From the IMG/VR virus record IMGVR_UViG_3300011185_000002: a stretch of 32,724 nucleotides of DNA; one strand, written 5' to 3'. This DNA comes from a virus. Under the pieces are notes generated by a model. That model was given only the letters and a program-made list of their open reading frames with translations. It did not search any database and was not told the DNA's origin. Made by a program: the position numbers and the translations under genes. Positions 1 through 32,724 of this stretch are shown here, in pieces (position 1 is the stretch's first letter; each line of letters opens with the position of its first letter).

Positions 1-123
1 AAGATTAAGCCAGCCCAGGGTATGTATTTCCGCGGCGATCAATTCATGTACTGTGATCGCCATGAACTCCCGAAGCTTCGGCGGATGATTCGGTACTGGG
101 ATAGGGCAGCAACTGAACCCACT
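1..123. repeat. Terminal overlap. It is identical to 32602-32724 and marks circular closure of the contig.
   Basis: Direct comparison shows that the first 123 nt equal the last 123 nt. The repeat is codon-aligned inside one continuous ORF (terL). Confidence 0.95.
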
Positions 124-594
124 TCACAGAACCCGGACCCTGACTGGACTGTCGGGGTTCTAATGGGGCTATGCGAGCTGGGCAGACCTTACGTCCTGGA
201 TGTCGAGCGTTTCCGCGCCGGGCCGGCCGGCGTTGTACGGAAGATCCAGGCGACAGCCGCTAAAGATGGGACGGATGTAGAGATCGGGATCGAGCAAGAC
301 CCCGGTCAGGCTGGCAAATCAGAGGCCCAGTCTCTAATCTCAGCTCTTTCTGGGTACAGCTGTAAGGCGGTCCGAGCTGACAGGAAAAAGGTAATTCGGG
401 CGAAGCCATTCAGCGCTCAGGTACAGGCCGGAAACGTGACCATGGTCCGCGCTCACTGGAATACTGACTACACCCGAGAGCTGGAAGCGTTCGACGGATC
501 CGAGCGTGGCAAGGACGACCAAGTTGACGGCAGCTCAGGCGCGTTCAACATGTTGCATGAGAGAAAGAAAAAAGCCTTGATCGGCAGGGCATAG
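1..594 (+). CDS. terL: Terminase large subunit, C-terminal (nuclease) part. It continues the ORF that begins at 31837.
   Basis: The frame is open from base 1 to the stop at 592-594. Base 124 is in frame with 32724 once the overlap is collapsed. The motifs WDRAAT, IEQDPGQAGK and DDQVDGSSGAF are typical of the RNaseH-like terminase nuclease domain. The joined protein is about 452 aa. Confidence 0.9.
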   Translation, partial: KIKPAQGMYFRGDQFMYCDRHELPKLRRMIRYWDRAATEPTSQNPDPDWTVGVLMGLCELGRPYVLDVERFRAGPAGVVRKIQATAAKDGTDVEIGIEQDPGQAGKSEAQSLISALSGYSCKAVRADRKKVIRAKPFSAQVQAGNVTMVRAHWNTDYTRELEAFDGSERGKDDQVDGSSGAFNMLHERKKKALIGRA

Positions 595-662
595 TTATGT
601 AATATAACAACTATGCGGATATGATCGTTCGCATACACCACACAAACAAAGAGGTAATCATC

Positions 663-1544
663 ATGCAACAACGTAGCGCAGAATGGTTCGCAGCTCGCAG
701 AGGCCGTCTCACAGCATCAATCGTCGGGGCTCTTCTGGGACTCGCACCTTACATGACCAAAGCTGACGCAGAGCGCGCATTTATCCGCGAGCTTCTCGGG
801 GCTGAGTCTGAATTCACTGGCAACATCGCAACTGACTGGGGCGTTAAGCATGAGCCCGAGGCCGCGCTGGCGTACCAGTTCGAGACCGACAGCACAGTGG
901 TCCCGCACGGATTCTTCAAGCTGGATGACTGGGCAGGGATGAGTCCAGATGGTCTGATTGGAGACGACGGCCTAGTGGAGATCAAATGCCCGTTCGGACT
1001 CCGCAAAGATGAGAGCCCGAAGTTCAAAAGCATTTTTTCTGAGGCTCAGGCTCACTACTATGCCCAGGTTCAATTCCAGATGTATGTCAGCGGCCGCAAG
1101 TGGTGCGACTTCTACCAGTGGGCTCCAGGCGGTACCAGTCTTGAGCGCGTGAAGTATGATCCACAATGGGCTGCTGAGTACATTCCGGTACTTGCTAACA
1201 TGCAAGACAAGCTGACAGCACTTGCAATGGATAAGAAGTCCGCTAAGCCGTACCTGGATCCGCTGACCGTGACCATCGAAGACGAAGCATCCAGCTTTTT
1301 GCTCGATGAGTACGACGCGATCGTAGAAAAAGAGAAGGCCGCAAAAGAGCGCAAAGCTCAGATCCTGGCAGAACTCCGCGAGAAATCCGGTGACCGTAAT
1401 GCGGAGATTCACGGAAGAAAGCTGACAAAAGTATCCAAGGCTGGTAGCATCAGTTATTCAAAAGTCGCGAAAGACTTTGTGCCGAAGGGAACAAACCTTG
1501 AGGGGTACCGCGGCAAACCGACAGAATACTGGCAGCTCAAATAA
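663..1544 (+). CDS. YqaJ-like (lambda-Exo fold, PD-(D/E)XK) recombination exonuclease with a C-terminal Lys/Glu-rich extension
   Basis: The N-terminus MQQRSAEWFAARRGRLTASIVGALLG is the YqaJ signature. The catalytic-type motif is SPDGLIGDDGLVEIKCPF. An AAAGAGG RBS precedes the ATG at 663. The ORF-track start at 621 was judged an upstream extension. Confidence 0.85.
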   Translation: MQQRSAEWFAARRGRLTASIVGALLGLAPYMTKADAERAFIRELLGAESEFTGNIATDWGVKHEPEAALAYQFETDSTVVPHGFFKLDDWAGMSPDGLIGDDGLVEIKCPFGLRKDESPKFKSIFSEAQAHYYAQVQFQMYVSGRKWCDFYQWAPGGTSLERVKYDPQWAAEYIPVLANMQDKLTALAMDKKSAKPYLDPLTVTIEDEASSFLLDEYDAIVEKEKAAKERKAQILAELREKSGDRNAEIHGRKLTKVSKAGSISYSKVAKDFVPKGTNLEGYRGKPTEYWQLK

Positions 1545-1556
1545 AGGGGGAGTGTC

Positions 1557-2180
1557 ATGGGCGTTCGTAGCACTATCGACAGACTGAGACAGATAAGGCC
1601 AAAATCAGGCAGGGTCATCACGGAAAGTGGTGAAGTTGCGAACGCCGCTGATTTCATGCGGACTCAAAACGCAGTCAATGACCTGGTCAGAGCGGGGCTA
1701 GGTAGGGTCGCATCCAGCCACAGGAAGATAACGTTGTCTGCAGGGCAAGTGGCGTACTTCAAGCAAAGCATCCCAGCTGGAACTTCTATCCGGGGAATTT
1801 TGGGGGGCTCAAGCATCATTAATGGTGAGGTTGAGTCGCGCCTTGTTATCGGAGCTACACCGGGGGTTGTAGTGGACACACTTGATCCGATGAATGCAGA
1901 TCGCAGGACTATCAATCAACAGAACCCAGCTGAAGACGCTTTTATCCAGCAGTTAGACGGGTTTACTAGTGGGATCGAGCTCGATTTGACTGTTGGGTAC
2001 TCCGAGGGGCAGGGAGACAGAAAGCTCTCAACTACGCTAACCGGAAACGGTATCGGCGGGATCTTTGATTCCACGGTAGAGCCGTACTTCTCTTTCGAGA
2101 ACCTTGGCGACTCATCATGCGAAATTATTGTCCGATTCGTTTGGGCAGACATCTCTGAGGTACTTGATCATGTTCGATAA
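1557..2180 (+). CDS. Hypothetical protein (207 aa, beta-rich, no recognised motif)
   Basis: The ORF has an AGGGGGA RBS. Its end overlaps the portal start by 11 nt, which suggests coupled translation. I recognise no motif. Confidence 0.6.
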   Translation: MGVRSTIDRLRQIRPKSGRVITESGEVANAADFMRTQNAVNDLVRAGLGRVASSHRKITLSAGQVAYFKQSIPAGTSIRGILGGSSIINGEVESRLVIGATPGVVVDTLDPMNADRRTINQQNPAEDAFIQQLDGFTSGIELDLTVGYSEGQGDRKLSTTLTGNGIGGIFDSTVEPYFSFENLGDSSCEIIVRFVWADISEVLDHVR

Positions 2181-3582
2181 TCTATTCGGGAAGAAATCCG
2201 AGGCGCCTGCTACTAAGCGAGTGCAAAAAATGATGCGGGGCTCCAGCGCGTTAGGGCTCTCTGTTACGTCCGAGTGGAACAACTACCGGGACCGCGTTGG
2301 GCTGGAAGAGGGCTACGAAGGGAACTCATGGGTCTACGCTTGCGTTCGCAAAAAGCAGCAAGCCGCTGGATCCGTCCCGTACGTTGTTCAGAAATTTACA
2401 TCTGAAGGCTGGGAGGCTGATGAGGAGAGCACACTGCTGAAGCTGCTCCAGAATCCATGCCCTAGTATGAGCGGGAGCCAGCTTCTACAAGCAATCACTG
2501 CGCAGCTAGACATTGCCGGCGCCTTCCATGCCCGCGTTATCCGCGGTGGCCGTGGCGGCAACGTCCCGCTTGAGATCTGGCCACTGGAGATCGGCAGTGT
2601 TTCGCCACGATTCCGTGGATCTGAGTTGGTCGGCTGGAAGCATGAGCCATTCGGACTGCCTGCTCAAAACCTTGAGCTGAACGAAATTATGTGCCTGCGT
2701 CACACCCACCCTGATGGCGTATACAAGGGTATGAGCGCCGTCCGTGCTGGTGGTAAAGCTATCGACATCGATAACGACGCTTCTGACTGGCAGAAAGTTA
2801 CAATGCAGAACCGAGGCATCCCTGATGGCGTGTTCACGCTGGAGGGCGAGGTCGGGGTTGACGAATGGGAGGAGGCCCGGCGCCAAGTTCGGGATCAGTA
2901 CACCGGCTTGAGTTCAGCCCGCGAGCCCTGGGTGCTGGCTAATGCTTCATTCTCGCAGATGAGTCAAAGTATGGCGGACCTGGACTTCATGGAAGGCCGT
3001 AAAATGACCCGGTCTGAGATCTGCTCAGTGTTAGACGTCCCGGAGCCGTTGATTGGCATTTATGAGAACGCCACTCTGTCGAATATCGAGACCGCTCGAA
3101 AGATCTTTTGGCGCGATACCCTGGTCCCACTGCTGACTGATATCTCTGACCAAATGACACGATTCTTCACTGGCGGGAAAGGGGTCCGGATCCGCTTTGA
3201 CTTCACTTCAGTGTCTGCACTTCAAGATTCACTGCAGGAAAAGATGAGCGTTGCAAAAGATCTTTTCTCTCTCGGGGTCCCGCTGTCGGAGATCAATCGC
3301 CGTCTTGAGATGAACCTAGAGATTGATCAGATCCCTGGCGCTGAAGTTGGGTACACTGCTGGCGGATTGGTCCCGTCCACTGGTGGTGGTGGCGACGGCT
3401 TTGACCGCGTCATCCAACTTGCCCAGTTGGTTGCAGGTGGTGAGCTTTCCGTTGAGGCTGCTACTACTCTCGGTAAAGTGGCTATGCCGGATATGGATCC
3501 AGGCGAGCTTACTACGATCTTCGAGAGCTCGGCAGTGGAGAAGAGTTTCACGGATATCGCGAGGAAGGTGGGGTATGCCTAG
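2170..3582 (+). CDS. Portal protein (HK97-family-like)
   Basis: The product is about 470 aa and sits upstream of MuF, protease and capsid genes. The segments NSWVYACVRKKQQAAGSVPY and SEICSVLDVPEPLIG resemble conserved portal segments. The start was chosen at MFDNLFGKK, overlapping the upstream stop. Confidence 0.85.
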   Translation: MFDNLFGKKSEAPATKRVQKMMRGSSALGLSVTSEWNNYRDRVGLEEGYEGNSWVYACVRKKQQAAGSVPYVVQKFTSEGWEADEESTLLKLLQNPCPSMSGSQLLQAITAQLDIAGAFHARVIRGGRGGNVPLEIWPLEIGSVSPRFRGSELVGWKHEPFGLPAQNLELNEIMCLRHTHPDGVYKGMSAVRAGGKAIDIDNDASDWQKVTMQNRGIPDGVFTLEGEVGVDEWEEARRQVRDQYTGLSSAREPWVLANASFSQMSQSMADLDFMEGRKMTRSEICSVLDVPEPLIGIYENATLSNIETARKIFWRDTLVPLLTDISDQMTRFFTGGKGVRIRFDFTSVSALQDSLQEKMSVAKDLFSLGVPLSEINRRLEMNLEIDQIPGAEVGYTAGGLVPSTGGGGDGFDRVIQLAQLVAGGELSVEAATTLGKVAMPDMDPGELTTIFESSAVEKSFTDIARKVGYA

Positions 3583-4372
3583 GTATCTGCAAGGTAATAA
3601 GCCGCAGGAGGAGCGAGCGATCCAGAACAGAACTCAGGCGAGGGTGGCCAACGCGGCCGCTCCCGACTTTGAGGCTGAGATCATGCGAGCGTTCGAGGAG
3701 GCTGCCAGTGAGTACCGAAGGTGGGAGTCCGAGACTGTAATCGAGTCGATCCTTGAGCAGCATAACGAGACTATGTCCAACCTTGTAGAGAAGACATGGA
3801 TTCGATCCGGACGTCTCGCAGGTGAGCGCACCTTAGGTGCTGTCAATAAGCACATGGGTATGACCTGGGAGACTAAGCAGGAAGAGGGGGAGATGGGGAT
3901 CTTCATGGAGATTTTTAGGTCGTACATTATCGGCGAGGCTTTGGTTCGAGCTGTTGGACTGGGGCTGACAACGATGAAAGTAATCCGTGACGTAATATTC
4001 GGAGCCAAGCAACGCGGTGAGTCTGTCGATGGTATCGCTAAAGCTATACTTAACCAAGGTTCCATAGACTCAAAGTATCGTGCTATGATGATCGCACGTA
4101 CTGAGTCACACTCGGCATATAATACTGCCCGGCAGGCGGCAGCTGAAGCATCCCCTCTGACTCTCAGTAAAGAGTGGGTATCGTCTGACGACGGGCGTAC
4201 GCGGGACTTCGGCAATGGTAAGTTTTCGCATCGCCAGGCAGACGGCGAGATCGTCCTGCTTAACGAGAAGTTTGTTGAGACGGGTGAAGCGCTCCGCTTC
4301 CCGGGCGATCCATCAGGATCTGCAGGTAATGTAATTCATTGTCGATGTGGTACAGTCGACGTACTAGACTAA
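3575..4372 (+). CDS. Head morphogenesis protein (Mu F / SPP1 gp7-like)
   Basis: It contains ARTESHSAYNTARQ and a C-terminal NVIHCRCG motif typical of the Mu-F-like family. A GAGGAAGGTGGGG RBS precedes the ATG at 3575, which overlaps the portal stop. Confidence 0.8.
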   Translation: MPRYLQGNKPQEERAIQNRTQARVANAAAPDFEAEIMRAFEEAASEYRRWESETVIESILEQHNETMSNLVEKTWIRSGRLAGERTLGAVNKHMGMTWETKQEEGEMGIFMEIFRSYIIGEALVRAVGLGLTTMKVIRDVIFGAKQRGESVDGIAKAILNQGSIDSKYRAMMIARTESHSAYNTARQAAAEASPLTLSKEWVSSDDGRTRDFGNGKFSHRQADGEIVLLNEKFVETGEALRFPGDPSGSAGNVIHCRCGTVDVLD

Positions 4373-4386
4373 AGTGGAGTTAAGAG

Positions 4387-4989
4387 ATGACTACTATCTT
4401 TCGCGATTTTCAAATGAAAGCGCAGAGCGTCGACGAAGAGGCGCGTACCGTTGAGGGTTATGCGTCTACCTGGGACATGGACCAAGTTGACGATATTATC
4501 CATTTTGGGGCCTTCCAGAAATCAATCAATGAGCGGTTTAGTGCCGGCAAAGTAAAAGTTCTTTGGCAGCATGCGGACCCGATCGGAATTCCTCTGGAGA
4601 TGGTCGAGGACGACAAAGGTCTCTGGGTAAAGGCAAAGATCTCGAAGACCGCACTGGGTGACGAGGCTCTCCAGTTGGCGAAGGATCGCGTTGTTGATCG
4701 TTTTTCTATCGGCTTCAGCATCCCTAAAGGCAAGGCTGAGATTGACGAGAACGGTATCCGCCACATCTATGAAGCTAAGCTCATAGAGTTCTCACTGGTG
4801 ACATTCGCAGCCAACGAAGCCGCGGTTCTTACTGCTGTCAAGCGCCTGCGGCAGTCCCTGGAAGAGAAAGGCCTGGACCCTGTGACCACTGAAGTCAAAG
4901 ACCCGAAGGAGAAGGACACAGGAGAATTCGACGAGCTGAAGTCCATGCTCGAAGAGTTCAGCACTTTCGCTAAGCATCGGCTGTATTAG
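4387..4989 (+). CDS. Prohead maturation protease (HK97 / S78-like)
   Basis: EGYASTWDMDQVDDIIHFGAFQKSI, VLWQHAD and DRFSIGF match the HK97 prohead protease pattern (His and Ser). The gene lies directly upstream of the capsid gene. Confidence 0.88.
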   Translation: MTTIFRDFQMKAQSVDEEARTVEGYASTWDMDQVDDIIHFGAFQKSINERFSAGKVKVLWQHADPIGIPLEMVEDDKGLWVKAKISKTALGDEALQLAKDRVVDRFSIGFSIPKGKAEIDENGIRHIYEAKLIEFSLVTFAANEAAVLTAVKRLRQSLEEKGLDPVTTEVKDPKEKDTGEFDELKSMLEEFSTFAKHRLY

Positions 4990-5005
4990 TTTAGTGAAAT
5001 AAGTA

Positions 5006-5034
5006 TTGACAAGCGGGGTGCATTCGAAGAGAAT
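5006..5034 (+). promoter_or_regulatory. Candidate sigma70-like promoter upstream of the capsid gene (TTGACA, 17 nt, GAGAAT)
   Basis: There is a perfect -35 hexamer at 5006-5011 and a 4/6 match to the -10 hexamer at 5029-5034. It sits in a 148-bp noncoding gap. Confidence 0.35.
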
Positions 5035-5137
5035 GTACTTCGTCGGCACTCGAAAGAGCCGCCACCACACAGAAAGCCGCACAGATTGCACTTTCCGTGG
5101 CACAAATTTAAACCTAAACTCGAAAGAGGAATATGTC

Positions 5138-6337: not shown

Positions 6338-6357
6338 ATCGGTAGTAGGTGAATAGA

Positions 6358-6387
6358 GAAGGGGCTCCACACGGGGCCCTTTTTTTG
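6358..6387 (+). terminator. Rho-independent terminator after the capsid gene
   Basis: The hairpin is AAGGGGCTCC-ACAC-GGGGCCCTT, a stem of about 11 bp including G-U pairs with a 4-nt loop. A run of 7 T follows. Confidence 0.85.
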
Positions 6388-6426
6388 TGTATACTGTCAG
6401 AACACTCAAGCGAATGGGGAAGTGAC

Positions 6427-6651: not shown

Positions 6652-6654
6652 ACC

Positions 6655-17412: not shown

Positions 17413-17440
17413 GCCCGGGTCTTCGGATCCGGGCTTTTTT
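17413..17440 (+). terminator. Rho-independent terminator ending the late/lysis operon
   Basis: The hairpin is GCCCGGGTC-TTCG-GATCCGGGC, followed by TTTTTT. Confidence 0.85.
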
Positions 17441-17487
17441 ATACCTGACTGAAAATAATTAAATGGGCTATTAGCCCGCTCAGGTGG

Positions 17488-17797
17488 ACCTGTGCATTTG
17501 TGCATTCTGGCTGTGCACCTGCTGCACAACGTAAGCCACTGATATTAAAGGGTTTCAGAGACCTGTGCACTTTGTGCATCTGCCTGGTGTGCGTGTGCAC
17601 CTGTGCAGAGGGGTCCGACCAACTCTTTCTTTTTCTTAGTAATAGTATATGTATATATAAACACGGTAAATCGATAAAGAAATTCAATCTCGCGAGCTGC
17701 ACATCTGCTGCACAAAATGCACAGGCCTGAAAACCACTTAAAATACAAGCATTTGCGCCGTGCACCGACTGCACACCCAAAATGCACAGGTGCACAT
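17488..17797. repeat. Iteron module A: a TGTGCA/TGCACA box array in dyad arrangement around an AT-rich core (candidate origin or operator array)
   Basis: Perfect TGTGCA boxes start at 17491, 17499, 17512, 17564, 17573, 17594 and 17602. Perfect reverse-complement TGCACA boxes start at 17523, 17698, 17709, 17718, 17770, 17783 and 17791. The AT-rich core spans about 17620-17690. No credible ORF is present. Confidence 0.8.
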
Positions 17798-17833
17798 ACC
17801 TGTGAATTCCGGCTTTAATCTGTGATATTATTG

Positions 17834-17862
17834 TTGACCCACCTACCTGATAAGCTTACTAT
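17834..17862 (+). promoter_or_regulatory. Candidate sigma70 promoter for the replication operon (TTGACC, 17 nt, TACTAT)
   Basis: The hexamers lie at 17834-17839 and 17857-17862, about 45 nt upstream of the primase-helicase start and just downstream of module A. Confidence 0.5.
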
Positions 17863-17905
17863 AACAACCAGTCGCATACACAAACACGAACACAGAGGGC
17901 ACCTT

Positions 17906-20470
17906 ATGCTTTTCGAACACCACAAAGCTGACTTGAAGCGCTCCGGGCTATCCGACGAAATGATCGCCGCAATGGGGTGCGAGAGCTTCGACTCACAATC
18001 AATCCAGCGCAGGATCTCTGGCGCTTCCAATGGAGCCGCGTCTGACGGCTACTCAATCCCTTACCCTGGGTCTAACGCAGTCCGCTACCGGCTGAGCACC
18101 GGAGCCCAGTCCGGAAGTGATAAGGCTATCCGGTACCTGTCTCCGATCGCTGACGCGTGGGACGTGTACGTGCCTGCAGGGTTCGACAAACTTAGCACCG
18201 ACACACTGCTAATCACAGAAGGGGAGAAGAAAGCCGCAAAGGCTGTTCAGGAAGGTATCCCAGCTATCGCTATCCCGGGCGTGTGGATGTGGAGGGACCC
18301 GGCTATCGAGCGTGACGGGAAGATGAGCGCCGGAACCCCGATCATCCCGCGTATTGCCGAGCTTGCTAAAGGCCGCAAGGTTGTCATACTGGCGGACTCT
18401 GACGCGAAAGCAAATCAGCAGGTCAAGGCTGCTCTTACGTTGCTCGCTAAAGCGATCGCGCATCAAGTTGAGTGTGAGGCTTCCGTCTTTGCTGTCTGCC
18501 CAGCTCCGGCCGCTGACAAAGTCGGACTTGATGACTGGCTGCTCAGCGATGGTACCAGTCCAGTTCACTCCATGCTGGTAGCTGCCGAGGGTTTTGAGAA
18601 TCCTGGGTTCCGCCTGTCAATACCGTACGCCGAGAAGACTGACGGGTCCTACCTCCACTACCTGATCCCGTTCGACGTTAAGAGTAAGCCGATCCTACCT
18701 CCAGTTCTGAAGGAGTATGAGGAGGACGGGGAGACGATGTACAAGGCGACCGGCGCCCCTTACCTGTACCTGAGGCGTAATCTATTAGTGCTTAACCGCA
18801 ACTCAGACGGTGAATACCGCACTAATGACTCCGACGCGCCAGCTGAGGTCCTCTCAGAAGTGGAGGGTGTTACAGACGATCGCAGGGCCATTCTCGCACG
18901 GCTGAAGGCTACCGACCTATCAGAGAAAGAGGGCATTCTGAAATACGGTCTATCCGGGTCCCCTGCGGAGTTCAGCAAGATCTCACGCGCTCAGCGTAAC
19001 GCACGTATGTGCCCGACCGTTCGAGTGGCTGGGGAGAGGGGCTGGCTGAAAGTTGATGGGAGACTGCACTACCTGTACAGCGATTGTGCTGTAACGCCAG
19101 AAGGTGAAGCCCCTGTACTACCAAATCTAACAAACGACCGCGAGGGTGTCCGAACTGCAGGCGCATCCGGTGACTTTGATCGCTGGGCTGACATTGTTGC
19201 CCAACTCGTAGCGACTCACCCAGTCCAAGCCGCTGTAATGGGGTTCGCTGCAAGTTCTGCTGGCCTGTTCTTTGTACCTGACGCGGAGCCCGGTGTTCTG
19301 CATATCTATGGTGACAGCTCGAAGGGCAAGACCACAACGCTGCAGATCGCCGCTTCTCTAATTGGCCGGGCTACCAATCCGCGTGACCCTAGCAGCTGGA
19401 TCAAAGGCTGGCGGACCACTGACAACGGACTTGAACGTCCTTTGGCTGACACAAATCATGCTCCGCTGATGCTAGATGAGATTCACGCGGCTCCTGCGCG
19501 TACTGACTGGCAGGCAACGGCTTATATGATCGCCAACGGTCGCGGCAAAGAGCGTATGAAGCACACGACTGAGGCGCGCAAGACACCAACTTGGGAGCTC
19601 CAGCTACTCAGCTCTGGTGAAGTTTCAATGGGCGAGAAGATCCGCAAATCTGCAAAAGGTGCCGTTCCTGGTGGGCTGGCTTTTCGGGTTATTGATTTGT
19701 ATGCCGGCAATCTGGATCTTGTCGACCTCGGCATTCACGCTGACGCATGGGAAGAGGTGCTCGGGTATCCGGTTAAGTCTGACGCTGAACTGGCAGAAGC
19801 TCTGGAGACTGAGTTCTCGAACAACTACGGGCATTTCTGGCCTCAGCTTATTGGGTACCTTCGGGATTCTGGGGGGTTCAGCTACGCAGAGATCTATGAG
19901 CGCTTCCGTCGACGGGCAATCGCGTACCTGCCAGAAGACGCATCTACTATCGCTCAGCGTCGTACAAAGCATGTTGCATCTGCAATGGCCGGGCTCTACA
20001 CGATGTGCGAGCTGATCGGAATGGCACCGGACAGAGAAGACAAGGACGTTATCGACAGCGCTGAGGAATGGTGCTACAAAAACATGCTGCTCGCTGGGAT
20101 CGAAGATCTGAGCGGTACCGAAGCAGAGAGCATGATCGAGGTGATTACTGCCGAGATCCTTGCGAACGCTCAGCGCTTTTACCGTCCTGGGGTCGACACT
20201 AAAGGCGGGTCTCAGCTGGGCTGGATTGACGAAGACGGGTCTGTATTCTTGCCAGTGAAGACGGGGTGGAGCCAGCTCTGTCAGGAATGTGGGATCGATT
20301 CCGAGAGGGCCCGGGATGCACTGATGAAACAAGGCTGGAAGAAAGGCCGGTACCGGCACCCAGCTTCGGGCTCTGGATCTAACCCGACAACAACGTTGAA
20401 AGCGTTCGGTCTGATGAAATCGCTGGTTTCTAAAGACGAGAATGAGTCTGACGACTTGCAGCCCCTGTAA
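17906..20470 (+). CDS. Bifunctional primase-helicase (N-terminal Toprim domain plus DUF927/SF3-type P-loop NTPase)
   Basis: The Toprim motifs are LLITEGEKKAAKA and VVILADSDAKAN. Walker A is GDSSKGKTT and Walker B is PLMLDEIH. The segment ANGRGKERM is DUF927-like. An AGAGGG RBS precedes the ATG at 17906. Confidence 0.85.
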   Translation: MLFEHHKADLKRSGLSDEMIAAMGCESFDSQSIQRRISGASNGAASDGYSIPYPGSNAVRYRLSTGAQSGSDKAIRYLSPIADAWDVYVPAGFDKLSTDTLLITEGEKKAAKAVQEGIPAIAIPGVWMWRDPAIERDGKMSAGTPIIPRIAELAKGRKVVILADSDAKANQQVKAALTLLAKAIAHQVECEASVFAVCPAPAADKVGLDDWLLSDGTSPVHSMLVAAEGFENPGFRLSIPYAEKTDGSYLHYLIPFDVKSKPILPPVLKEYEEDGETMYKATGAPYLYLRRNLLVLNRNSDGEYRTNDSDAPAEVLSEVEGVTDDRRAILARLKATDLSEKEGILKYGLSGSPAEFSKISRAQRNARMCPTVRVAGERGWLKVDGRLHYLYSDCAVTPEGEAPVLPNLTNDREGVRTAGASGDFDRWADIVAQLVATHPVQAAVMGFAASSAGLFFVPDAEPGVLHIYGDSSKGKTTTLQIAASLIGRATNPRDPSSWIKGWRTTDNGLERPLADTNHAPLMLDEIHAAPARTDWQATAYMIANGRGKERMKHTTEARKTPTWELQLLSSGEVSMGEKIRKSAKGAVPGGLAFRVIDLYAGNLDLVDLGIHADAWEEVLGYPVKSDAELAEALETEFSNNYGHFWPQLIGYLRDSGGFSYAEIYERFRRRAIAYLPEDASTIAQRRTKHVASAMAGLYTMCELIGMAPDREDKDVIDSAEEWCYKNMLLAGIEDLSGTEAESMIEVITAEILANAQRFYRPGVDTKGGSQLGWIDEDGSVFLPVKTGWSQLCQECGIDSERARDALMKQGWKKGRYRHPASGSGSNPTTTLKAFGLMKSLVSKDENESDDLQPL

Positions 20471-25747: not shown

Positions 25748-26253
25748 AATCATTTATAGGCTGTGACCCAGGACTTAGAGGCGCAATCGCAATAGTCAAC
25801 GAGCGTGCTGAACTTATCAGCTGTTTCGACATGCCAGTCAGAGAGATCCGGGGCGTGAAGACGGCGACCGTGAAGAATGAAGTCAATCCCAGTGAGCTGG
25901 TGGCCAAGCTGGATCCAGGCCCGCTTTACGATCTTGAATATGGTATAATTGAGAGAGTCGGGACGCGCCCAAGGCAGGGAATTGCAAGCGCTTTCGGGTT
26001 CGGTGATAGCTTCGGCGCTGCCAGGTCTGTACTCGAATGTGCATGCGCTGGACGGATCGGGGAAGCGAGACCTGCAGACTGGAAGCGTGACCTGGGACTT
26101 GAAACGCTGGATAAAGACGCGTCAATCGAGAAAGCAAAGAAACTTGTATCCGGATCTGAGCAGTTCCTGACCCGGAAGAAAGATCATGACCGGGCTGAAG
26201 CGATATTGCTGGCCTGGATGGCATTGAAGAGGTGGAAAAATGGCAAACGCTAA
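25744..26253 (+). CDS. RuvC-like Holliday junction resolvase
   Basis: The N-terminus FIGCDPGLRGAIAIV carries the catalytic Asp of the RNaseH fold. The C-terminal segment DHDRAEAILLAWMAL is typical of phage RuvC-like resolvases. Confidence 0.7.
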   Translation: MKSFIGCDPGLRGAIAIVNERAELISCFDMPVREIRGVKTATVKNEVNPSELVAKLDPGPLYDLEYGIIERVGTRPRQGIASAFGFGDSFGAARSVLECACAGRIGEARPADWKRDLGLETLDKDASIEKAKKLVSGSEQFLTRKKDHDRAEAILLAWMALKRWKNGKR

Positions 26254-26812: not shown

Positions 26813-26864
26813 TATAATGGTTATTACGGAAGTGATGAGCCGTGATATCAGTGAGAAACGTTTA

Positions 26865-26897
26865 GCCCGGTTGAAAAATACCGGGTATTTTTTTGCC
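26865..26897 (+). terminator. Rho-independent terminator
   Basis: The hairpin is GCCCGGT-TGAAAAAT-ACCGGGT, followed by ATTTTTTT. Confidence 0.75.
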
Positions 26898-26920
26898 CTA
26901 AGGTATTGCATAAGTATAAC
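26893..26920 (+). promoter_or_regulatory. Candidate sigma70 promoter (TTGCCC, 16 nt, TATAAC)
   Basis: The hexamers lie at 26893-26898 and 26915-26920, about 50 nt upstream of the next ORF. Confidence 0.35.
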
Positions 26921-26969
26921 AAGCCGAGTAACCTACAATTGAAGTCAACGAAAACACAAAGAGGCACTC

Positions 26970-27158
26970 ATGAAAGCAGCAGACATCCGAGTACAGAATC
27001 ACGAAGACGGTGGCGTAACAGTTAAGCACACCCCGAGCGGGATTAGCACCACGAGCAACGACAGGCAAACCCGAGAAGGTAACCTTCGGGCAGCAATGAA
27101 AGTGGTACAGACTGGGGTTAACAACTTCCAACATAAGGATCTGAACTATGTTTCGTAA
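26970..27158 (+). CDS. Small protein (62 aa) resembling the core of the class-I release factor RF-1 domain but lacking GGQ
   Basis: An AAAGAGG RBS is present. By eye, VTVKHTPSGISTTSNDRQTREGNLRAAMKVV aligns to the RF1/RF2 segment [31 protein letters not shown] through H-x-P-S/T-G-I ... D ... N ... AM-x-V. The GGQ loop is absent. Confidence 0.5.
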   Translation: MKAADIRVQNHEDGGVTVKHTPSGISTTSNDRQTREGNLRAAMKVVQTGVNNFQHKDLNYVS

Positions 27159-27390
27159 CATCATCGACTCAATCGTTTACACAGTGAAGATGGCCTGGGC
27201 TAACGCTGGCCTGGGCAACAACTTCCAAAGCGGACTGGACTGGGCTTTTCGGGAGCTGCACAACGGCGCAAGCGTACCAGATCTTGAGGCGTCAGTGCTC
27301 CACTGCAAAGGCTTCCACATGACAGAAGCCGATAAAGACTACAGCCGCGGCGTACTAGCTGCATGCGAATACTATGGAGGTGGCCTGTGA
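27148..27390 (+). CDS. Hypothetical protein (80 aa)
   Basis: The ORF overlaps its neighbours at both ends. It shares an F-x-x-G-x-x-WA-x-x-x-L-x-x-G ... LE-x-S motif with the next ORF. Confidence 0.5.
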   Translation: MFRNIIDSIVYTVKMAWANAGLGNNFQSGLDWAFRELHNGASVPDLEASVLHCKGFHMTEADKDYSRGVLAACEYYGGGL

Positions 27391-27650
27391 ACCTGAAGAT
27401 TAAAGCGGCAATCTTGAGCATCGGCGAGCTGATGCGGATCCGGATCGCGGATGCTAAGCAGGACGAGGAGTTCAAAGAGGGCATGGCCTGGGCTACTGAA
27501 CAACTTGATGATGGCTTGGACCATTACGAGCTGGAAGAATCGCTTGAGATGCAGGATCGCTATGCCAGCGAAGTGGAAGTGCCTGAGAATGTCAGAGAGT
27601 GGCTCTCAGGGGCACGGGCAGGACTACTGGAGTGGCGCTCGATAAACTGA
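27387..27650 (+). CDS. Hypothetical acidic protein (87 aa, GTG start), a probable paralogue of 27148-27390
   Basis: A GGAGGTGG RBS is followed by a GTG that overlaps the upstream TGA (GTGA). It shares the motif noted for the previous ORF. Confidence 0.45.
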   Translation: MNLKIKAAILSIGELMRIRIADAKQDEEFKEGMAWATEQLDDGLDHYELEESLEMQDRYASEVEVPENVREWLSGARAGLLEWRSIN

Positions 27651-27691
27651 GCGCTTACCTATTAAATAGATCAATACGCGAGGACTTAACG

Positions 27692-28003
27692 ATGAAACAG
27701 ATTATGATTGCAGTAGTGGCAGTGGTGATGGTGATGATCCACACCCAGGCGAACGCCCAAGGATTGAGCGGGTTGATGGCGACAGTCGAGGAGAGCATGC
27801 CGGTACTTGAACGGCTCGCTGCGGCTGATGAGGATGACCTGGCGCTTCACTGCGCGGGTAACCAGGAGTGCATCGACGGGATGCGCAACGATGTGAAGCA
27901 CCTGAATAAGGCCCTGGACATCTTGAAGAGACAGAGCGCCAGTTACCAGGCTAATAAAGCGGCATTTGATGCACAGGAAAGTTCCATAAGGGGAGGCAGG
28001 TAA
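27692..28003 (+). CDS. Small secreted / periplasmic protein (103 aa)
   Basis: A GAGGA RBS is present. The signal peptide is MKQIMIAVVAVVMVMIHTQANA-QG. The mature part is helical and contains 2 Cys. Confidence 0.6.
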   Translation: MKQIMIAVVAVVMVMIHTQANAQGLSGLMATVEESMPVLERLAAADEDDLALHCAGNQECIDGMRNDVKHLNKALDILKRQSASYQANKAAFDAQESSIRGGR

Positions 28004-28677
28004 TGAGAAAACAAGCTGGAGTCACCAAGGTTAATGACGATGAGTGGTATACACCGTATGGGACGGCTTTAAAAGTGGCGGAGTGGCTGGCATCGGCGCT
28101 TAGCCTGGATACACCGATACTATGCCCAGCGGACCTGCCTCCGGATGGATCAGAGTCCGCGATCCCAGAGGCTTTGAGGGCCGTCGGTTTTCGGCAAGTG
28201 CGGGTTACGCGGGACCTTCCCGTATCAACCCAGGAGATACAGGACTGGTTACCAGGTGAAGTTATTGTGACGAACCCACCGTTTAGTCTGCTGGTTCCTT
28301 TCAGGCGCTGGGCCCTCGCGTCAGGATCCAGGTTTTGTATACTATCAAGGCCAGGCGAAATGCGTAGCTGCTGGAACATTCCAGAACTCGGCAGCAGGTT
28401 CAAATCAACAGACGGGCGAAGCGTTGCAGCTGCGTGGGTGCAGAACATTAAGGACACCGTAGAGCCTGGCGAGGTTGCTGGCAATGTCCTTGGGGATTGC
28501 GGGGTCTGCGAGAGTAAGTCATGCCCGAAGAATTCTATGACTGAGGGCTGGCTACCAGGTAAACCAAGGCCACTGTACGGCTTCGGTACTGCAGCTAAGG
28601 GAGGCTTCGTAGGATATTATTGCAAGGTGTATCGTGTAGACGGGATAGGAAAATTTATTAGGTTTTTCAAGCCCTGA
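28003..28677 (+). CDS. Putative DNA N6-adenine methyltransferase (EcoRI-methylase-like family)
   Basis: The N-terminus has DDEWYTP. Catalytic motif IV is VIVTNPPFSLL. The layout resembles the PF13651-type phage adenine methylases as I recall them. Confidence 0.6.
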   Translation: MRKQAGVTKVNDDEWYTPYGTALKVAEWLASALSLDTPILCPADLPPDGSESAIPEALRAVGFRQVRVTRDLPVSTQEIQDWLPGEVIVTNPPFSLLVPFRRWALASGSRFCILSRPGEMRSCWNIPELGSRFKSTDGRSVAAAWVQNIKDTVEPGEVAGNVLGDCGVCESKSCPKNSMTEGWLPGKPRPLYGFGTAAKGGFVGYYCKVYRVDGIGKFIRFFKP

Positions 28678-28717
28678 GATATAGTCACACAGAAAGCATC
28701 ATAAGGGGAAACAAGTA

Positions 28718-29416
28718 ATGCGAGTACTAATTGCATTTGAATCCAGCGGCGTAGTCAGGGAGGCTTTCAGGAGGCTCGGGCATGACGCATGGAGCTGTGA
28801 TCTTCAGCAGGCCGACGATGGGAGTGAGCATCATATTCAAGGGGATGTGATGAGGATCCTTGATGCTGGATGGGACTTGATGATCGCACACCCACCGTGC
28901 ACTTACCTGACTAGCTCGGCAGCGTGGGCGTTTGGGGATGGCCCATACCATCAGAAGGTTAGACCAGAAACCTTGGTAGGTGCAGCCAGGAGAGAGGCCA
29001 GAGAAGAGGCTTTGCGTATGGTGCAGGCATTATTAGAGGCACCTATAAAGCGGATCGCTATTGAGAACCCGTCGGGGTCTATAGGTACTCGAATCCGTAA
29101 AGCAGACCAGTATATCCAGGCGTATGACTTTGGCGAGGATGCCAGTAAGAAGACAGGACTATGGCTCAAGGGCTTAGATCCGATCAAGGGGGAACACTAC
29201 GTTCAGCCACGCTGGGTATGCTGCGGCATGACTCTGCCTGATGGGGTTGGGCGGTATGGGTGCCCAAACTGCTGCGGTGATGAGACCCCTAAGCCGAGAT
29301 GGGCAAACCAAACCCAAAGCGGGCAGAGCAACCTCGGACCTGCTAAAGACCGGTGGAAGGTCAGATCTAAAACCTATCAAGGCATTGCTGATGCGATGGC
29401 TAAGCATTGGGGGTGA
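28718..29416 (+). CDS. Short cytosine-C5 methyltransferase-like protein (232 aa) with a Cys-rich C-terminal segment
   Basis: The motif I-like segment is VLIAFESSGVV, the motif IV-like segment is AHPPCTYL, the motif VI-like segment is IAIENPSG, and the motif VIII-like segment is QAYDFGEDASKKTGLW. The C-terminal segment is CCGMTLPDGVGRYGCPNCCG. No clear target-recognition domain or motifs IX/X were seen. Confidence 0.5.
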   Translation: MRVLIAFESSGVVREAFRRLGHDAWSCDLQQADDGSEHHIQGDVMRILDAGWDLMIAHPPCTYLTSSAAWAFGDGPYHQKVRPETLVGAARREAREEALRMVQALLEAPIKRIAIENPSGSIGTRIRKADQYIQAYDFGEDASKKTGLWLKGLDPIKGEHYVQPRWVCCGMTLPDGVGRYGCPNCCGDETPKPRWANQTQSGQSNLGPAKDRWKVRSKTYQGIADAMAKHWG

Positions 29417-29465
29417 CCCCGGAAAGCAAAAGAAGACCCCGGCCAGGAATGATCGAGGGCTTTTT

Positions 29466-29941
29466 TGTGCGTGTGCACTTTGTGCAGCTGCGCTGTGCAA
29501 TCGGTCGAGTTTGTGCACTTCGGATCCTTGCAAGCGCACATGTATAAATTTTGATCAATCTTATGCTAACCGTAAGTGACTGTTTTTAAAGGGTTTGTGC
29601 ACCTGTGCATTTTGGGTGTGCAGTCGGTGCACGACGCAAGTACCTGATTCTATTGAAGTTTTTCAGTTTGTGCACTTTGTGCAGCAGCTGCGCGATTTGT
29701 GCACCTGTGCAGTGGTAAGGGTTCGCCCTACTTTTTTTAATTTCTTAAGATATATATGAGTATATGAATTAAATAAGGGTCTCATGCGACGTCAAAACTT
29801 TCGTGTTATGCACATGATGCTGCACAAAGTGCACAGATCCTGAAAACCCTTTAGTATCAATAGTTTACGCCGTGCACCGACTGCACACCCAAAATGCACA
29901 GGTGCACATGCCTAGCAAAATCAATGACTTACACTGGTGCA
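29466..29941. repeat. Iteron module B, a paralogue of module A with an extra internal block that creates a perfect 38-bp inverted repeat
   Basis: Perfect TGTGCA boxes start at 29472, 29481, 29494, 29512, 29596, 29604, 29617, 29669, 29678, 29698 and 29706. Perfect TGCACA boxes start at 29809, 29821, 29830, 29882, 29895 and 29903. The AT-rich core spans about 29722-29800. The segment 29596-29633 is the exact reverse complement of 29871-29908. Confidence 0.85.
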
Positions 29942-29996
29942 CCCGTAGCACGCGAGTATGCTACTGGTGCCTTAACAAACTGTAACGTTTATCTTA

Positions 29997-30024
29997 TTGC
30001 ATTAAACTAACAAGCGCGTATAGT
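29997..30024 (+). promoter_or_regulatory. Candidate sigma70 promoter (TTGCAT, 16 nt, TATAGT) for the 30069-31784 operon
   Basis: The hexamers lie at 29997-30002 and 30019-30024, 45 nt upstream of the ATG at 30069. Confidence 0.5.
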
Positions 30025-30068
30025 GGGAACTGTAGACAGCACACAACGAGACAAACAGGAGCACTACC

Positions 30069-30464
30069 ATGGAATTTGACTTTCACACCGCGACTCTGAT
30101 CGATATCGACGTACTTGACCACACCCGCACATTCGAGGCTCACCACGATGACGGTGAGTGCGATACCACAGCTATCGTTAAGGTCACACTGCGCGATAAG
30201 ACCGGGTTCCAGCTGGAGTTTTTTTGCAGCGCTAAATCTGTGAATCACAGCGACTCGGACTGCGCGAGTGAGATCCACTACTACATCAGCCGCGAGGAGT
30301 ACCCTGACGTTCTGATCAACGGCATCCCCGAGCACAACCGCCTTGAGCTCGGCACTTGCCGCCTGTTCATTGACACGAACAACATCGGCGTCTGGCAGCA
30401 TCAAGTAAAGAACTGCCTGCTGAACCGCGATGTTGACGAGATCATTTTCTGGGACCAGGCATAA
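30069..30464 (+). CDS. Strongly acidic hypothetical protein (131 aa)
   Basis: An ACAGGAG RBS is present. By my count there are about 25 Asp/Glu against about 10 Lys/Arg. It is the first gene after the promoter. Confidence 0.6.
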   Translation: MEFDFHTATLIDIDVLDHTRTFEAHHDDGECDTTAIVKVTLRDKTGFQLEFFCSAKSVNHSDSDCASEIHYYISREEYPDVLINGIPEHNRLELGTCRLFIDTNNIGVWQHQVKNCLLNRDVDEIIFWDQA

Positions 30465-30516
30465 CAGCCCAGGCCATGGACGGCCACCACACAAACTGAA
30501 ACTATGAGGTATTACC

Positions 30517-30957
30517 ATGAACACCAATATCAACGAGCTCACCGAAAAGTTCACCCTGGATACCATCGAGATCCGCCAGCATGCCGCACGCCCTCTCCAG
30601 GATGGTATGCTGAAAACCTACGCGATCGGCGTGATGCAATTCCGCATGCTCGAAGAGCCCAGTGTCCGCCTCCGGTTCCCGGTCTACGCTGAGTCTGACC
30701 TGCACATGTACATTGCCAGCCCAGAGGATTTGCGTTATGACGTGATGCTCGCTGTCGACGTTTGTAACGACCTCTTCATGGGAGTCACTAAGAGCACGAT
30801 CAACGATCCGGAATCTGTCCGTGAATACATCGAGAGCTGCATCCGATTCGAGCAATTCTTTGAGGCTGAGCTACGCGCAGTTGAGAACCTGCCGATCGAG
30901 AATCTCTCCGGAATTGTTGTTGACCATGATCCGGGATCGGATTACTATAACAACTGA
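30517..30957 (+). CDS. Acidic hypothetical protein (146 aa)
   Basis: A TGAGGT RBS is present. By my count there are about 26 Asp/Glu against about 12 Lys/Arg. Confidence 0.6.
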   Translation: MNTNINELTEKFTLDTIEIRQHAARPLQDGMLKTYAIGVMQFRMLEEPSVRLRFPVYAESDLHMYIASPEDLRYDVMLAVDVCNDLFMGVTKSTINDPESVREYIESCIRFEQFFEAELRAVENLPIENLSGIVVDHDPGSDYYNN

Positions 30958-31010
30958 GGCATGGGGCAGACGCCCCTCCTCACTTTCAAACTGATATCGA
31001 GGATTACATC

Positions 31011-31784
31011 ATGAGCAATACTTTCACAAAACTCTATTCCGTTGACTGCAGCATGCACGTTGAAAACAAGAACGGCTTCAGCTACTTGTCCTGGCCGTTC
31101 GCCGTTGCCCAGTTGCGCTCACACGACCCGAAGGCTACCTGGCGCACTATCCGTCACGAAGGCATGCCTTACCTGAAGACTGAGTGCGGCTTCTTTGTCG
31201 AGGTCGAGGTCACTGTCGACGGTATCGCACTGAGCCAGATCCATCCTGTTCTGGATCACCGCAACAAGCCGATCGCTCAGCCTGACGCGTTCCACATCAA
31301 CACCAGCATTCAGCGCTGCATGGTCAAAGCAATGGCACTGCACGGAATTGGCCTTAGCATCTATGCCGGTGAAGACGTTCCGAACCCGGCTAACCTGGCA
31401 CCATCCAACATCAGCGAAGCCGAGGCAGCAGAGATCCGGACACTGATCGGCAAGACTGGCTCCGACGAGCGCAGTTTCCTCGCTTACGTGCAAGCCCAGT
31501 CTGTTGATCAGATCACTCTCGGGGCAATGCATAGCAAAGCGCTGACCGCTCTCAAGTCTAAGCTTAAGAAGCTGGAGGAAAAGAAAGCTCAGGAGGAGGC
31601 AGCCGCTGCCGAGAAGGCTAAGCCTAGCGAAGAGATTGATCAGGATCAGCCCGCATCCGAGCCTAATCAGCCACAGAAGGAGGATCATAGCGCTTCAGAG
31701 CCTGAGACTCATCAGCATGAGATCTCCGATCCTGAGGCAAATGGAGAGCCTGAGGCTAAACCCCGTCGCAGGCGTCGCAACTAA
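31011..31784 (+). CDS. Single-strand annealing protein (Sak / DUF1071, Rad52-like)
   Basis: NGFSYLSWPFAVAQL, INTSIQRCMVKAMALHGIGLSIYAGEDVP is the Sak-family signature. The C-terminal tail is acidic and low-complexity and ends in RRRRRN. Confidence 0.8.
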   Translation: MSNTFTKLYSVDCSMHVENKNGFSYLSWPFAVAQLRSHDPKATWRTIRHEGMPYLKTECGFFVEVEVTVDGIALSQIHPVLDHRNKPIAQPDAFHINTSIQRCMVKAMALHGIGLSIYAGEDVPNPANLAPSNISEAEAAEIRTLIGKTGSDERSFLAYVQAQSVDQITLGAMHSKALTALKSKLKKLEEKKAQEEAAAAEKAKPSEEIDQDQPASEPNQPQKEDHSASEPETHQHEISDPEANGEPEAKPRRRRRN

Positions 31785-31802
31785 TAGCCCATAGTGTTAT
31801 AT

Positions 31803-31836
31803 TAAGCCCCTCTCTTAACAGACTGGGGCTTTTCTT
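31803..31836 (+). terminator. Probable rho-independent terminator or attenuator immediately before terL
   Basis: The hairpin is AAGCCCC-(14-nt loop)-GGGGCTT, followed by TTTCTT. The T-tract abuts the terL ATG. Confidence 0.5.
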
Positions 31837-32724
31837 ATGCCGATCATCAAACCACAAAAAGGACCGCAGGAAGCTTTCATGGCCAGTCCTGCTGACATCG
31901 TAATCTATGGCGGGGCAGCCGGGGGCGGAAAGACTTTCGCGCTACTGATGGAAGCGATCCGACACATCAACAACAAGCGATTTCGTTGCGCTATCTTTCG
32001 ACGCACTCACACGCAGGTAAAACAGCCTGGCGGTCTCTGGGATGAGTCGGGTGAGCTTTATCCGAAGCTCGGGGGCGTGCCGAATAGTTCCGACCTGTTC
32101 TGGCGGTTTCCCTCTGGTATGAAAGTAACTTTCAATTACTTGCAGACGGCAACTGACATGTATCAGTACCAGGGTGCACAGATACCGCTGATTATGTTCG
32201 ACGAGGTGACGCATTTCAGTGAGACGCAATTCTTCTACATGGTCTCGCGTCTGCGATCTGCATCGGGGGTTAAGGGGTACATCCGTGCGACATGCAACCC
32301 GGATCCAGATTCCTGGGTAGCCAGGTTCATTAACTGGTGGATCGGGGAAGACGGGTACCCAGATTCCTCCCGGGCTGGAGTCATCCGATGGTTTGTTAGG
32401 CGTGGTGACGACATCGTCTGGGCTGATAGCCCAAAAGAATTAACGGATCAATTCGGGCCTAAGGCAAAGCCTAAGTCTGTGGCGTTCATCCCGGCAACCC
32501 TGGCGGACAATAAGATTCTTATGGAGAAAGACCCAGAGTACGAGTCTAACCTCGAATCCCTTCCACTGGTCGAGCGTGAGCAGCTTCTAGGTGGCAACTG
32601 GAAGATTAAGCCAGCCCAGGGTATGTATTTCCGCGGCGATCAATTCATGTACTGTGATCGCCATGAACTCCCGAAGCTTCGGCGGATGATTCGGTACTGG
32701 GATAGGGCAGCAACTGAACCCACT
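31837..32724 (+). CDS. terL: Terminase large subunit, N-terminal ATPase part. It runs off the window end and continues at base 124 (that is, into 1..594).
   Basis: There is an in-frame stop at 31816 and an ATG at 31837. The N-terminus contains PQKGPQEAFMASPADIVIYGGAAGGGKT (Walker A). Walker B is IPLIMFDEVTH, and ATCNPD is also present. No stop occurs before 32724. Confidence 0.92.
   Translation, partial: MPIIKPQKGPQEAFMASPADIVIYGGAAGGGKTFALLMEAIRHINNKRFRCAIFRRTHTQVKQPGGLWDESGELYPKLGGVPNSSDLFWRFPSGMKVTFNYLQTATDMYQYQGAQIPLIMFDEVTHFSETQFFYMVSRLRSASGVKGYIRATCNPDPDSWVARFINWWIGEDGYPDSSRAGVIRWFVRRGDDIVWADSPKELTDQFGPKAKPKSVAFIPATLADNKILMEKDPEYESNLESLPLVEREQLLGGNWKIKPAQGMYFRGDQFMYCDRHELPKLRRMIRYWDRAATEPT
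32602..32724. repeat. Terminal overlap, identical to 1-123
   Basis: Direct comparison. Confidence 0.95.

Follow-up and report, generated by a model that had tools for sequence, protein, structure and literature searches.

Over-use of the palindrome GGATCC, and more weakly of GATC, in an uncultured phage and its clade

Short palindromes are classic restriction targets that phages usually purge from their genomes, and the question raised by IMG/VR virus record IMGVR_UViG_3300011185_000002 is why this phage should instead carry so many copies of GATC and of GGATCC. We analysed the whole stretch of 32,724 nucleotides, which we call the window. An earlier reading made from the letters alone (the original prediction) held that both words are over-represented throughout the genome and are under positive selection as sites that are used. 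The over-representation is confirmed as real and statistically robust, with the fold excess of GATC corrected downwards. In this clade specifically, a 6-bp palindrome built on a GATC core is over-used, independently of frame and alike on both strands, and the over-use behaves as a trait of density. The lineage amasses GGATCC about 20-fold above its peers, which points to a pressure of the opposite sign to the usual one, and there is no accepted explanation.

Counts of GATC and GGATCC against codon-aware expectations

The ends of the window are identical over 123 nt, and a large terminase gene reads through the junction. This makes the window the complete genome of an uncultured phage, assembled as a circle, with 32,601 unique bp and 52.6% GC. 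The 123-nt repeat arises where the assembly of a circular or terminally redundant genome overlaps itself. Exact counting gives 268 GATC in the window where base composition predicts 126 (2.1-fold), or 266 against 125.4 (2.12-fold) in the unique genome, and GATC ranks third in frequency among all 256 tetramers. The manual estimate of about 3.5-fold, drawn from tallies of 8, 9 and 9 in three stretches of 600 nt, was right about the excess and inflated as to its size. The actual tallies are 7, 9 and 9, and the figure was overstated because the three sampled stretches are richer than the genome average. In the case of GGATCC the count by eye, about 39 against about 8-9 expected, was exact: there are 39 sites against 8.7 expected (8.6 in the unique genome), a 4.5-fold excess, and they are found in 24 of the 40 annotated genes (Table 1). 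The sites quoted at 496, 1256, 17425 and 29522 exist, that quoted at 3189 starts at 3188, and the codon phases that were stated are correct.

An artefact of assembly, linkers or miscounting was considered, the terminal assembly duplication being the point in its favour. However the counts are exact, the duplication contributes only 2 GATC and no GGATCC, and the sites lie in frame within intact genes. Independent assemblies also carry the same sequence, an ENA assembly of the same phage (L209) at 99.9% identity and an IMG/VR fragment (L001) at 97-98%. We regard this account as refuted.

A codon-aware shuffle had been named as the comparison that could overturn the excess, and both words exceed it. 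We shuffled synonymous codons within genes in 1000 replicates, preserving the protein sequence and the codon usage of each gene. This gave 198.5±9.9 GATC (z 6.8) and 14.7±3.0 GGATCC (z 8.2), with none of the 1000 shuffles reaching the observed count of either word; for the curated genes GATC stands 1.34-fold over this null. Permutation of whole codons gave 176±11 GATC and 10.2±2.8 GGATCC. Under the synonymous null the most over-represented 4-mer is GATC, the 5-mer GGATC, the 6-mer (of 4096) GGATCC and the 7-mer GGATCCG, and when reverse complements are merged the four top hexamers each contain GGATC. The z of 7.8 for GGATCC in that ranking may be compared with 5.35, the 99th percentile of the maximum z across all hexamers in the shuffles. 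Markov models agree, with the excess persisting in every codon phase: three-periodic models of maximal order, conditioned on phase-specific sub-words, give observed/expected ratios by phase of 1.24, 1.38 and 1.14 for GATC and 1.66, 1.52 and 1.66 for GGATCC.

Composition, amino-acid usage and codon usage together explain roughly half of the raw GATC excess, raising the expectation from 126 to about 176-198, and contributors to this half are ATC for Ile, GAT for Asp and codons ending in G. These factors leave some 70 GATC unaccounted for, together with most of the excess of GGATCC. The remainder is context-specific choice among synonymous codons in all three frames, boosted where Gly-Ser can be written GGA-TCN.

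By codon phase there are 82, 38 and 129 GATC against 71, 13 and 96 expected under the synonymous null, and 14, 10 and 13 GGATCC against 1.8, 5.0 and 5.8, so the occurrence in all three phases seen in the letters is borne out by phase counts and Markov models alike. Before TC, Gly is written GGA in 59% of cases, where the overall share is 16% (odds ratio 9.6, p = 6e-14), other NNA-TC contexts having odds ratios of only 1.0-2.5. GAT is preferred to GAC before C with an odds ratio of 1.48 (0.47-1.35 in analogous NAT-C contexts), and the fraction of G-ending codons before ATC is 0.48 against 0.355 overall. The original prediction was also right that no single dipeptide is the explanation, as the excess is present in three frames; Gly-Ser as GGA-TCN is nonetheless the largest single contributor, supplying about one third of the excess in GATC and half of that in GGATCC. 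The two strands are alike, with 97 GGATC against 52 expected and 85 GATCC against 51 (synonymous null), and on account of this equal enrichment an effect at the level of the mRNA (the sense strand) is rejected. The Markov excess is uniform over the three phases, and thus argues for an effect on the DNA itself and not on translation.

The flanking bases matter. Relative to the shuffle GGATCC is enriched 2.64-fold, CGATCG 1.93, AGATCT 1.55 and (A/C)GATCC about 1.5, and there is no enrichment with a 5' T or a 3' A (TGATCA 1.02, CGATCA/TGATCG 1.04, AGATCA/TGATCT 0.74). YGGATCCR is the form taken by 20 of the 39 GGATCC sites. There are 21 copies of CTGGATC where 6.6 are expected and 20 of GGATCCG where 6.0 are, and among octamers CGGATCCG is found 9 times against 2.2 and GGATCCGC 10 times against 1.5. 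A hidden longer repeat element was considered and rejected, as the contexts of the sites are unique coding sequence with the YGGATCCR tendency alone.

The sites are scattered. GATC density is 2-15 per kb in every 1-kb bin, the coefficient of variation of the spacing is 1.06 (Poisson-like), no distance from 4 to 60 nt has a z above 2.5, and pairs at most 60 nt apart number 130 against 113.6±11.7. Clusters or spacing like those of SeqA, oriC or pac sites are rejected on these grounds. This bears on two of the uses that had been suggested: the clustering or helical-phase spacing of GATC seen in functional Dam/SeqA-type arrays is absent, and 266 dispersed sites cannot be put down to one packaging or recombination signal. 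The primase-helicase gene (17822-20470) has 23 GATC and no GGATCC, about 3 of the latter being expected at the genome density.

Site density among related phages

Relatives were gathered through the capsid protein. The comparison set comprised 161 phage loci, each 8 kb or longer. In 96 of them there is no GGATCC, and its pooled observed/expected ratio over the set is 0.40, falling to 0.20 among the 75 loci of similar GC. The view that the excess runs contrary to the phage norm is upheld. Within the closest clade the excess is shared: L003 (85% capsid identity) has 19 GGATCC against 4.4 expected, L002 has 7 against 1.3, L201 has 4 against 0.8 and L005 (80% identity) has 8 against 3.2. In the window, L001, L002, L003, L201 and L005, GGATCC takes a place between 1st and 5th among the 64 palindromic hexamers. 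The other 63 pool at about 1.0 (1.01) in these genomes, and an enrichment of palindromes in general, such as quasi-palindrome correction might produce, is rejected on that ground. Under the synonymous shuffle L003 has 19 GGATCC against 6.4 (z 5.7), again with a peak at GGA-TCC (10 against 1.2). Once the GGATCC sites are discounted, no excess of GATC is left in L003 and L005, and one of about 1.23-fold is left in the window.

Outside this clade the picture changes. L007, L009 and L011, at 62-68% capsid identity, have GATC at 0.76-0.82 of expectation and 0-1 GGATCC sites, and across the capsid family GATC observed/expected spans 0.02 to 3.1. The family thus covers the full range of selection on words with a GATC core. 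In the IMG/VR relatives L018, L032 and L036 avoidance is near total, with a single GATC against 42-56 expected, and many members of the capsid family, such as L019 and L021, have plentiful GATC and no GGATCC or CGATCG.

Individual sites are not retained. Only 1 of 9 alignable GGATCC sites is common to the window and L003, and 1 of 7 to the window and L005; GATC is conserved at 0.31, compared with 0.26 over all 4-mers (rank 57 of 203), and in L001, 98% identical, 2 of 36 GATC sites differ where 2.5 are expected. Purifying selection on individual sites was thus not detected in comparisons with L003, L005, L002 or L001. The density of sites is maintained through turnover, rather than particular positions, and we call the excess a density trait because the sites are scattered and their positions are not conserved between relatives.

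With regard to the host, the nearest relatives in culture are siphophages that infect Pseudoalteromonas, Alteromonas and Idiomarina, with a capsid identity of only about 40%. There is no nucleotide-level match to the window among deposited phages, searches with the polymerase and tail proteins found no near cultured relative, a capsid search of genomes for a host or prophage found nothing close, and a metagenome scan added only short fragments of the clade. There is also a phage-like 8-kb contig of different architecture, L208 (contig DAINOE010000112.1 of the Arsukibacterium sp. metagenome-assembled genome GCA_036735525.1). It has 6 GGATCC against 1.7 expected, with GATC at expectation, and carries the nearest named homologue (65%) of the C5-methyltransferase-like protein discussed below. 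It may point the way to the host lineage, or to a signature linked to the host.

Possible causes: methylation, a neutral signature and others

The explanation that we place first is a pressure linked to methylation or restriction, for which our estimate is a probability of about 0.38. A 6-bp palindrome is the type of word read by dimeric methyltransferases and restriction enzymes, and the wider family would seem to be under intense selection on GGATCC, most members having none; from its absence in 96 of 161 loci we conclude that selection acts strongly on this word in these phages. In the clade of the window the sites may be methylated, by the host or by one of two tandem orphan methyltransferases. 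Such methylation would lift restriction as a counter-selection, and the number of sites would then rise above the codon-aware expectation under a modest positive pressure acting on those that are methylated or recognised. Alteromonadales, the marine group that includes hosts of the nearest cultured relatives, use Dam.

Restriction avoidance is active in this phage, but not on GGATCC, because other palindromes are still missing. CTCGAG is absent from the window (7.0 expected from the shuffle) and also from L003 and L005; CACGTG, CATATG, TCTAGA and CGCGCG all have no copy. GCTAGC occurs once against 7.5 expected, and CTAG is at 0.36 of expectation.

The first of the two candidate genes (28003-28677), directly upstream of the other, is present in L003 and not in L005 as judged by synteny. 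Its 224-aa product is probably an amino DNA methyltransferase of N6-adenine type, to judge from its motifs, and probably an undescribed small one with a zinc-binding target-recognition part. It has no sequence match in Pfam, NCBIfam, PHROG or PDB (a PDB search with a 425-aa protein of the window was likewise without significant match). The family has weak Pfam matches below threshold, with 31 of its 34 members matching EcoRI_methylase and 1 of the 34 Dam (PF05869, E 0.19), and with the AF2 model (pLDDT 89.4) Foldseek gives only weak matches, to KsgA/Erm and M.BseCI. The second product resembles a compact C5-cytosine DNA methyltransferase with a variable Cys-rich insert (VCCG...CPNC). It matches PHROG 757 and no Pfam or NCBIfam model, and its AF2 model (pLDDT 89.5) matches M.HaeIII (1dct, E 1.8e-7), M.HhaI and DNMT1 in Foldseek. 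This compact family has at least 8000 metagenome homologues and no Pfam model. At the syntenic position in L003 and L005 the C5-like gene is absent.

Several observations weigh against a methylation-linked pressure. L003 keeps its GGATCC excess without the C5-like gene, and L005 does so with neither gene in its sequenced part. Among 70 loci with a C5 homologue 52 have no GGATCC, the closest homologues included, and the pooled observed/expected ratio is 0.31; four phages with homologues of the 224-aa protein, which has the motif NPPF, have GATC at 0.31-1.14 and 0-2 GGATCC sites. Protection by methylation accounts for tolerance of sites, not for an excess. The 2.85 kb of noncoding DNA has 13 GATC against 11 expected, which is no clear excess, at low power. 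Finally the GATC/null ratio of the window, 1.26-1.34, sits in the upper tail of a continuous distribution, and a neutral cause is therefore possible for GATC.

As causes in their own right both genes fare poorly. The C5-methyltransferase is rejected, being missing from L003 and L005 and having homologues in phages that avoid GGATCC; the NPPF protein has no support from the four phages with homologues, and its fold and family assignment is weak. The phage does carry two tandem orphan methyltransferase-like genes, but neither family travels with the enrichment.

Another mechanism that involves methylation is a drive by very short patch (VSP) repair, of the HIP1 type, in which C5-methylation of GATC or GGATCC is followed by Vsr-like T:G correction of near-cognate words. 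The presence of a C5-methyltransferase-like gene suits it, as do the depletion of CTAG and the enrichment of CCAG/CTGG, a pattern attributed to VSP repair in enterobacteria. However the one-transition neighbours are not depleted (GATT/AATC 0.97, GGATTC/GAATCC 0.93), GGATCT/AGATCC is in fact enriched at 1.50, and domain searches of the window proteins found no Vsr-like protein. Here again, L003 and L005 lack the C5 gene and still show the excess of GGATCC, and the word is avoided by phages that carry homologues. The neighbour counts in particular largely refute this drive, and we consider it very improbable.

The alternative closest in rank is a neutral signature, in which the sites have no function. 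It would arise by amelioration towards the oligonucleotide or codon-pair usage of the host, or from the mutation and repair spectrum of phage replication, and it presumes a niche free of enzymes that cut GATC or GGATCC. The dispersed, Poisson-like sites, unconserved in position, are what it leads one to expect, and codon usage alone lifts the GATC expectation from 126 to 176-198. The preference for GGA before TC is common, with odds ratios of 2-6, even in relatives without a GATC excess, and the unrelated Arsukibacterium-binned L208, with its 6 GGATCC against 1.7, hints at a host-linked effect. We put a panel of 135 loci through the identical synonymous shuffle: the median of observed/null for GATC is 1.01, with 1.30 as the 95th percentile, and the window, at 1.26 with automatic genes and 1.34 with curated ones, is again within the upper tail of a continuum. 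In that panel the GGATCC z of the window is second only to that of Mycobacterium phage Pipefish. Siranosian et al. likewise refer to the case of the B3 mycobacteriophages, taken up below, as genome-wide amelioration (PMC4841201).

On the other side, mutational context effects seldom span a 6-bp palindrome. GGATCC is 1.5-1.7 fold above the expectation from its own 4-mers in every frame and is the top hexamer of 4096, with the remaining palindromic hexamers pooling at 1.0. The excess tracks the phage clade over GC contents of 0.48-0.53, and possibly 0.36-0.40, and other B subclusters have GGATCC usage below 1 though all are mycobacteriophages (PMC4841201). A neutral signature is a tentative alternative that we rank nearly as likely as the methylation-linked pressure.

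Third in rank, and in our view unlikely, is that GGATCC or its half-site GGATC is a binding, nicking or priming site of a phage protein, such as a primase-helicase, a recombination protein or a DNA-compaction factor, for which many copies on both strands are advantageous. The palindromic, strand-symmetric and frame-independent excess with defined flanks (YGGATCCR in 20 of 39) would fit a binding site, and the trait follows the phage clade. A Sak/YqaJ-type recombination module beside the terminase is common to the clade and missing from L007, which is not enriched, but this correlation with gene content comes from three or four genomes only. No candidate protein was identified, the sites show no positional conservation, preferred spacing or noncoding enrichment, and the primase-helicase gene itself has 23 GATC and no GGATCC.

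What then of positive selection for a site that is used? The frame-independence, the contrast with the phage norm and the two methyltransferase-like genes uphold parts of that reading. That the sites are used is not supported, as individual sites are no more conserved than other words and noncoding DNA is not enriched; the two noncoding sites pointed out before, at 17425 in a hairpin and at 29522, do exist, but noncoding DNA as a whole shows no enrichment. Positive selection is possible, yet here it is indistinguishable from a lineage-specific compositional bias. A stronger proposal is that GGATCC, and more weakly GATC, is a positively selected functional mark in this lineage, of which the density matters, and that it evolved independently in the B3 mycobacteriophages. 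Such a mark may for example be methylated by one of the two tandem orphan methyltransferases and read by a phage or host factor, and may serve in self-recognition, in replication or recombination, or in anti-defence. We think this improbable, though worth stating.

The genome as a whole has about 40 genes, nearly all on the + strand, and no tRNA genes. Structural and packaging genes are those for terminase, portal, a MuF-like protein, protease, HK97-type capsid and tape measure; those for replication and recombination encode a primase-helicase, a family A polymerase, exonucleases, a RuvC-like resolvase and a Sak annealing protein, and there are also genes for an SLT lysin and an Sf6-type small terminase. 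Coordinates are given in Table 1.

Table 1. Sites and features of the window referred to in the text
Feature	Position	Strand	Basis or remark
GGATCC starts	496, 1256, 2368, 3188, 3495, 5495, 6739, 7147, 10005, 11262		exact positions
GGATCC starts, continued	11352, 11679, 11894, 12205, 12232, 12462, 13160, 14574, 15108, 15292		exact positions
GGATCC starts, continued	16029, 16412, 16584, 17425, 20952, 21435, 21452, 22149, 22342, 23643		exact positions
GGATCC starts, end	23676, 23918, 24602, 25911, 27436, 28324, 28854, 29522, 32301		exact positions
GGATCC as GGA-TCC (Gly-Ser), example	496..501	+	most enriched frame, 14 vs 1.8 expected
CTGGATCCAG, 10-bp perfect palindrome enclosing a GGATCC	25909..25918		site-context listing
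Terminator-like hairpin GCCCGGGTC-TTCG-GATCCGGGC, then T run	17413..17434	+	holds one of two noncoding GGATCC (17425)
224-aa methyltransferase-like protein	28003..28677	+	invariant TNPPF, N-terminal DEWYTP, four invariant cysteines in alignment
232-aa compact C5-cytosine DNA methyltransferase-like protein	28718..29416	+	HPPC (family HPxC) and ENP motifs
Terminal repeat (123 nt, exact)	32602..32724 = positions 1-123		exact overlap and read-through translation
Large terminase gene	31819-32601 then 1-594	across junction	terminase profile matches both ends
ACTCGAA copies	5048, 5118, 5701, 6610, 22834, 23239, 23265, 26031, 29087	+	word count

Other words and repeats stand out in this genome. GCCGGC is a second over-represented palindrome, with 24 copies against 10.9 (z about 4.3), and L003 and L005 have 14 each (2.9-fold and 5.3-fold respectively). 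The intergenic regions 17480-17800 and 29460-29940 hold arrays of TGTGCACCTGTGCA or GTGCAC-type repeats, with 5 and 10 of the 20 GTGCAC of the genome, and these look like operator or iteron arrays. The second array includes a 115-nt inverted repeat (29572-29686 and 29818-29932), of which a 112-nt stretch, 29573-29683, matches L003 and L005 in inverted orientation. ACTCGAA, a strand-specific word, has 9 copies on the + strand and 2 on the - strand, and TACTCGAA has 5 copies against about 0.1 expected; every copy is inside a gene. Shine-Dalgarno-like words are depleted in coding regions relative to the synonymous shuffle (GGAG z -5.6, AGGA z -5.1, GGAGG 33 against 68 and AGGAGG 10 against 20).

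Comparison with known systems

Dam, SeqA and MutH of Gammaproteobacteria use GATC, and their functional arrays, such as oriC and the pac site of phage P1, are local clusters with defined spacing. The window shares with them the tetranucleotide, a plausible host group and a methylation context, but its sites are evenly scattered with no preferred spacing, and it encodes no enzyme of shown GATC specificity.

HIP1 (GCGATCGC) of cyanobacteria is an octamer with a far larger excess than the GGATCC of the window. The likeness is that a palindrome with a GATC core is over-represented throughout the genome, coding regions included; the difference is that the window has no dominant octamer, with 3 copies of GCGATCGC and none of GGGATCCC. 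In the case of HIP1 a link to methylation of CGATCG is among the matters discussed (PMC6604393).

Surveys of phage genomes otherwise report avoidance of sites that are short palindromes (Rusinov et al. 2018, PMC6286503). Here too short palindromes are under selection, as the absence of CTCGAG, CACGTG, CATATG, TCTAGA and CGCGCG from the window illustrates, but for GATC and GGATCC the sign is reversed in its clade.

The closest parallel is in the mycobacteriophages of subcluster B3, in which Siranosian et al. (2015, F1000Research) found GATC and GGATCC at more than 4-fold their expectation (PMC4841201). That excess is genome-wide, unlike the other B subclusters, and was given without explanation (PMC4841201). 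Our recount for Pipefish gives 3.98-fold for GATC and 4.9-fold for GGATCC, or 1.43 and 3.1 over the synonymous shuffle, with GGATCC in three frames. The two cases are alike in the pair of palindromes, in an excess that is genome-wide and not regional, and in having sister lineages without it. They differ in that the B3 phages are unrelated to the window in phage and host, the latter being actinobacterial, and have 67% GC. They differ also in detail: in Pipefish every NGATCN class is enriched (2.3-6.5 fold relative to composition) and the odds ratios of the three frames are similar (3.5-5.1), whereas in the window the excess is concentrated on G/C flanks and GGA-TCN, and TGATCA is not enriched. 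A gene common to both as the cause of the convergence was looked for, and only a MuF-like head protein and one short match are shared.

The pair of over-used words known from B3 therefore recurs in the window, which represents a second and unrelated lineage. Should the cause turn out to be no more than a signature of the host, GGATCC could still serve as a marker for host assignment. The second occurrence turns what was a one-off curiosity into a recurring phenomenon that is open to comparative study.

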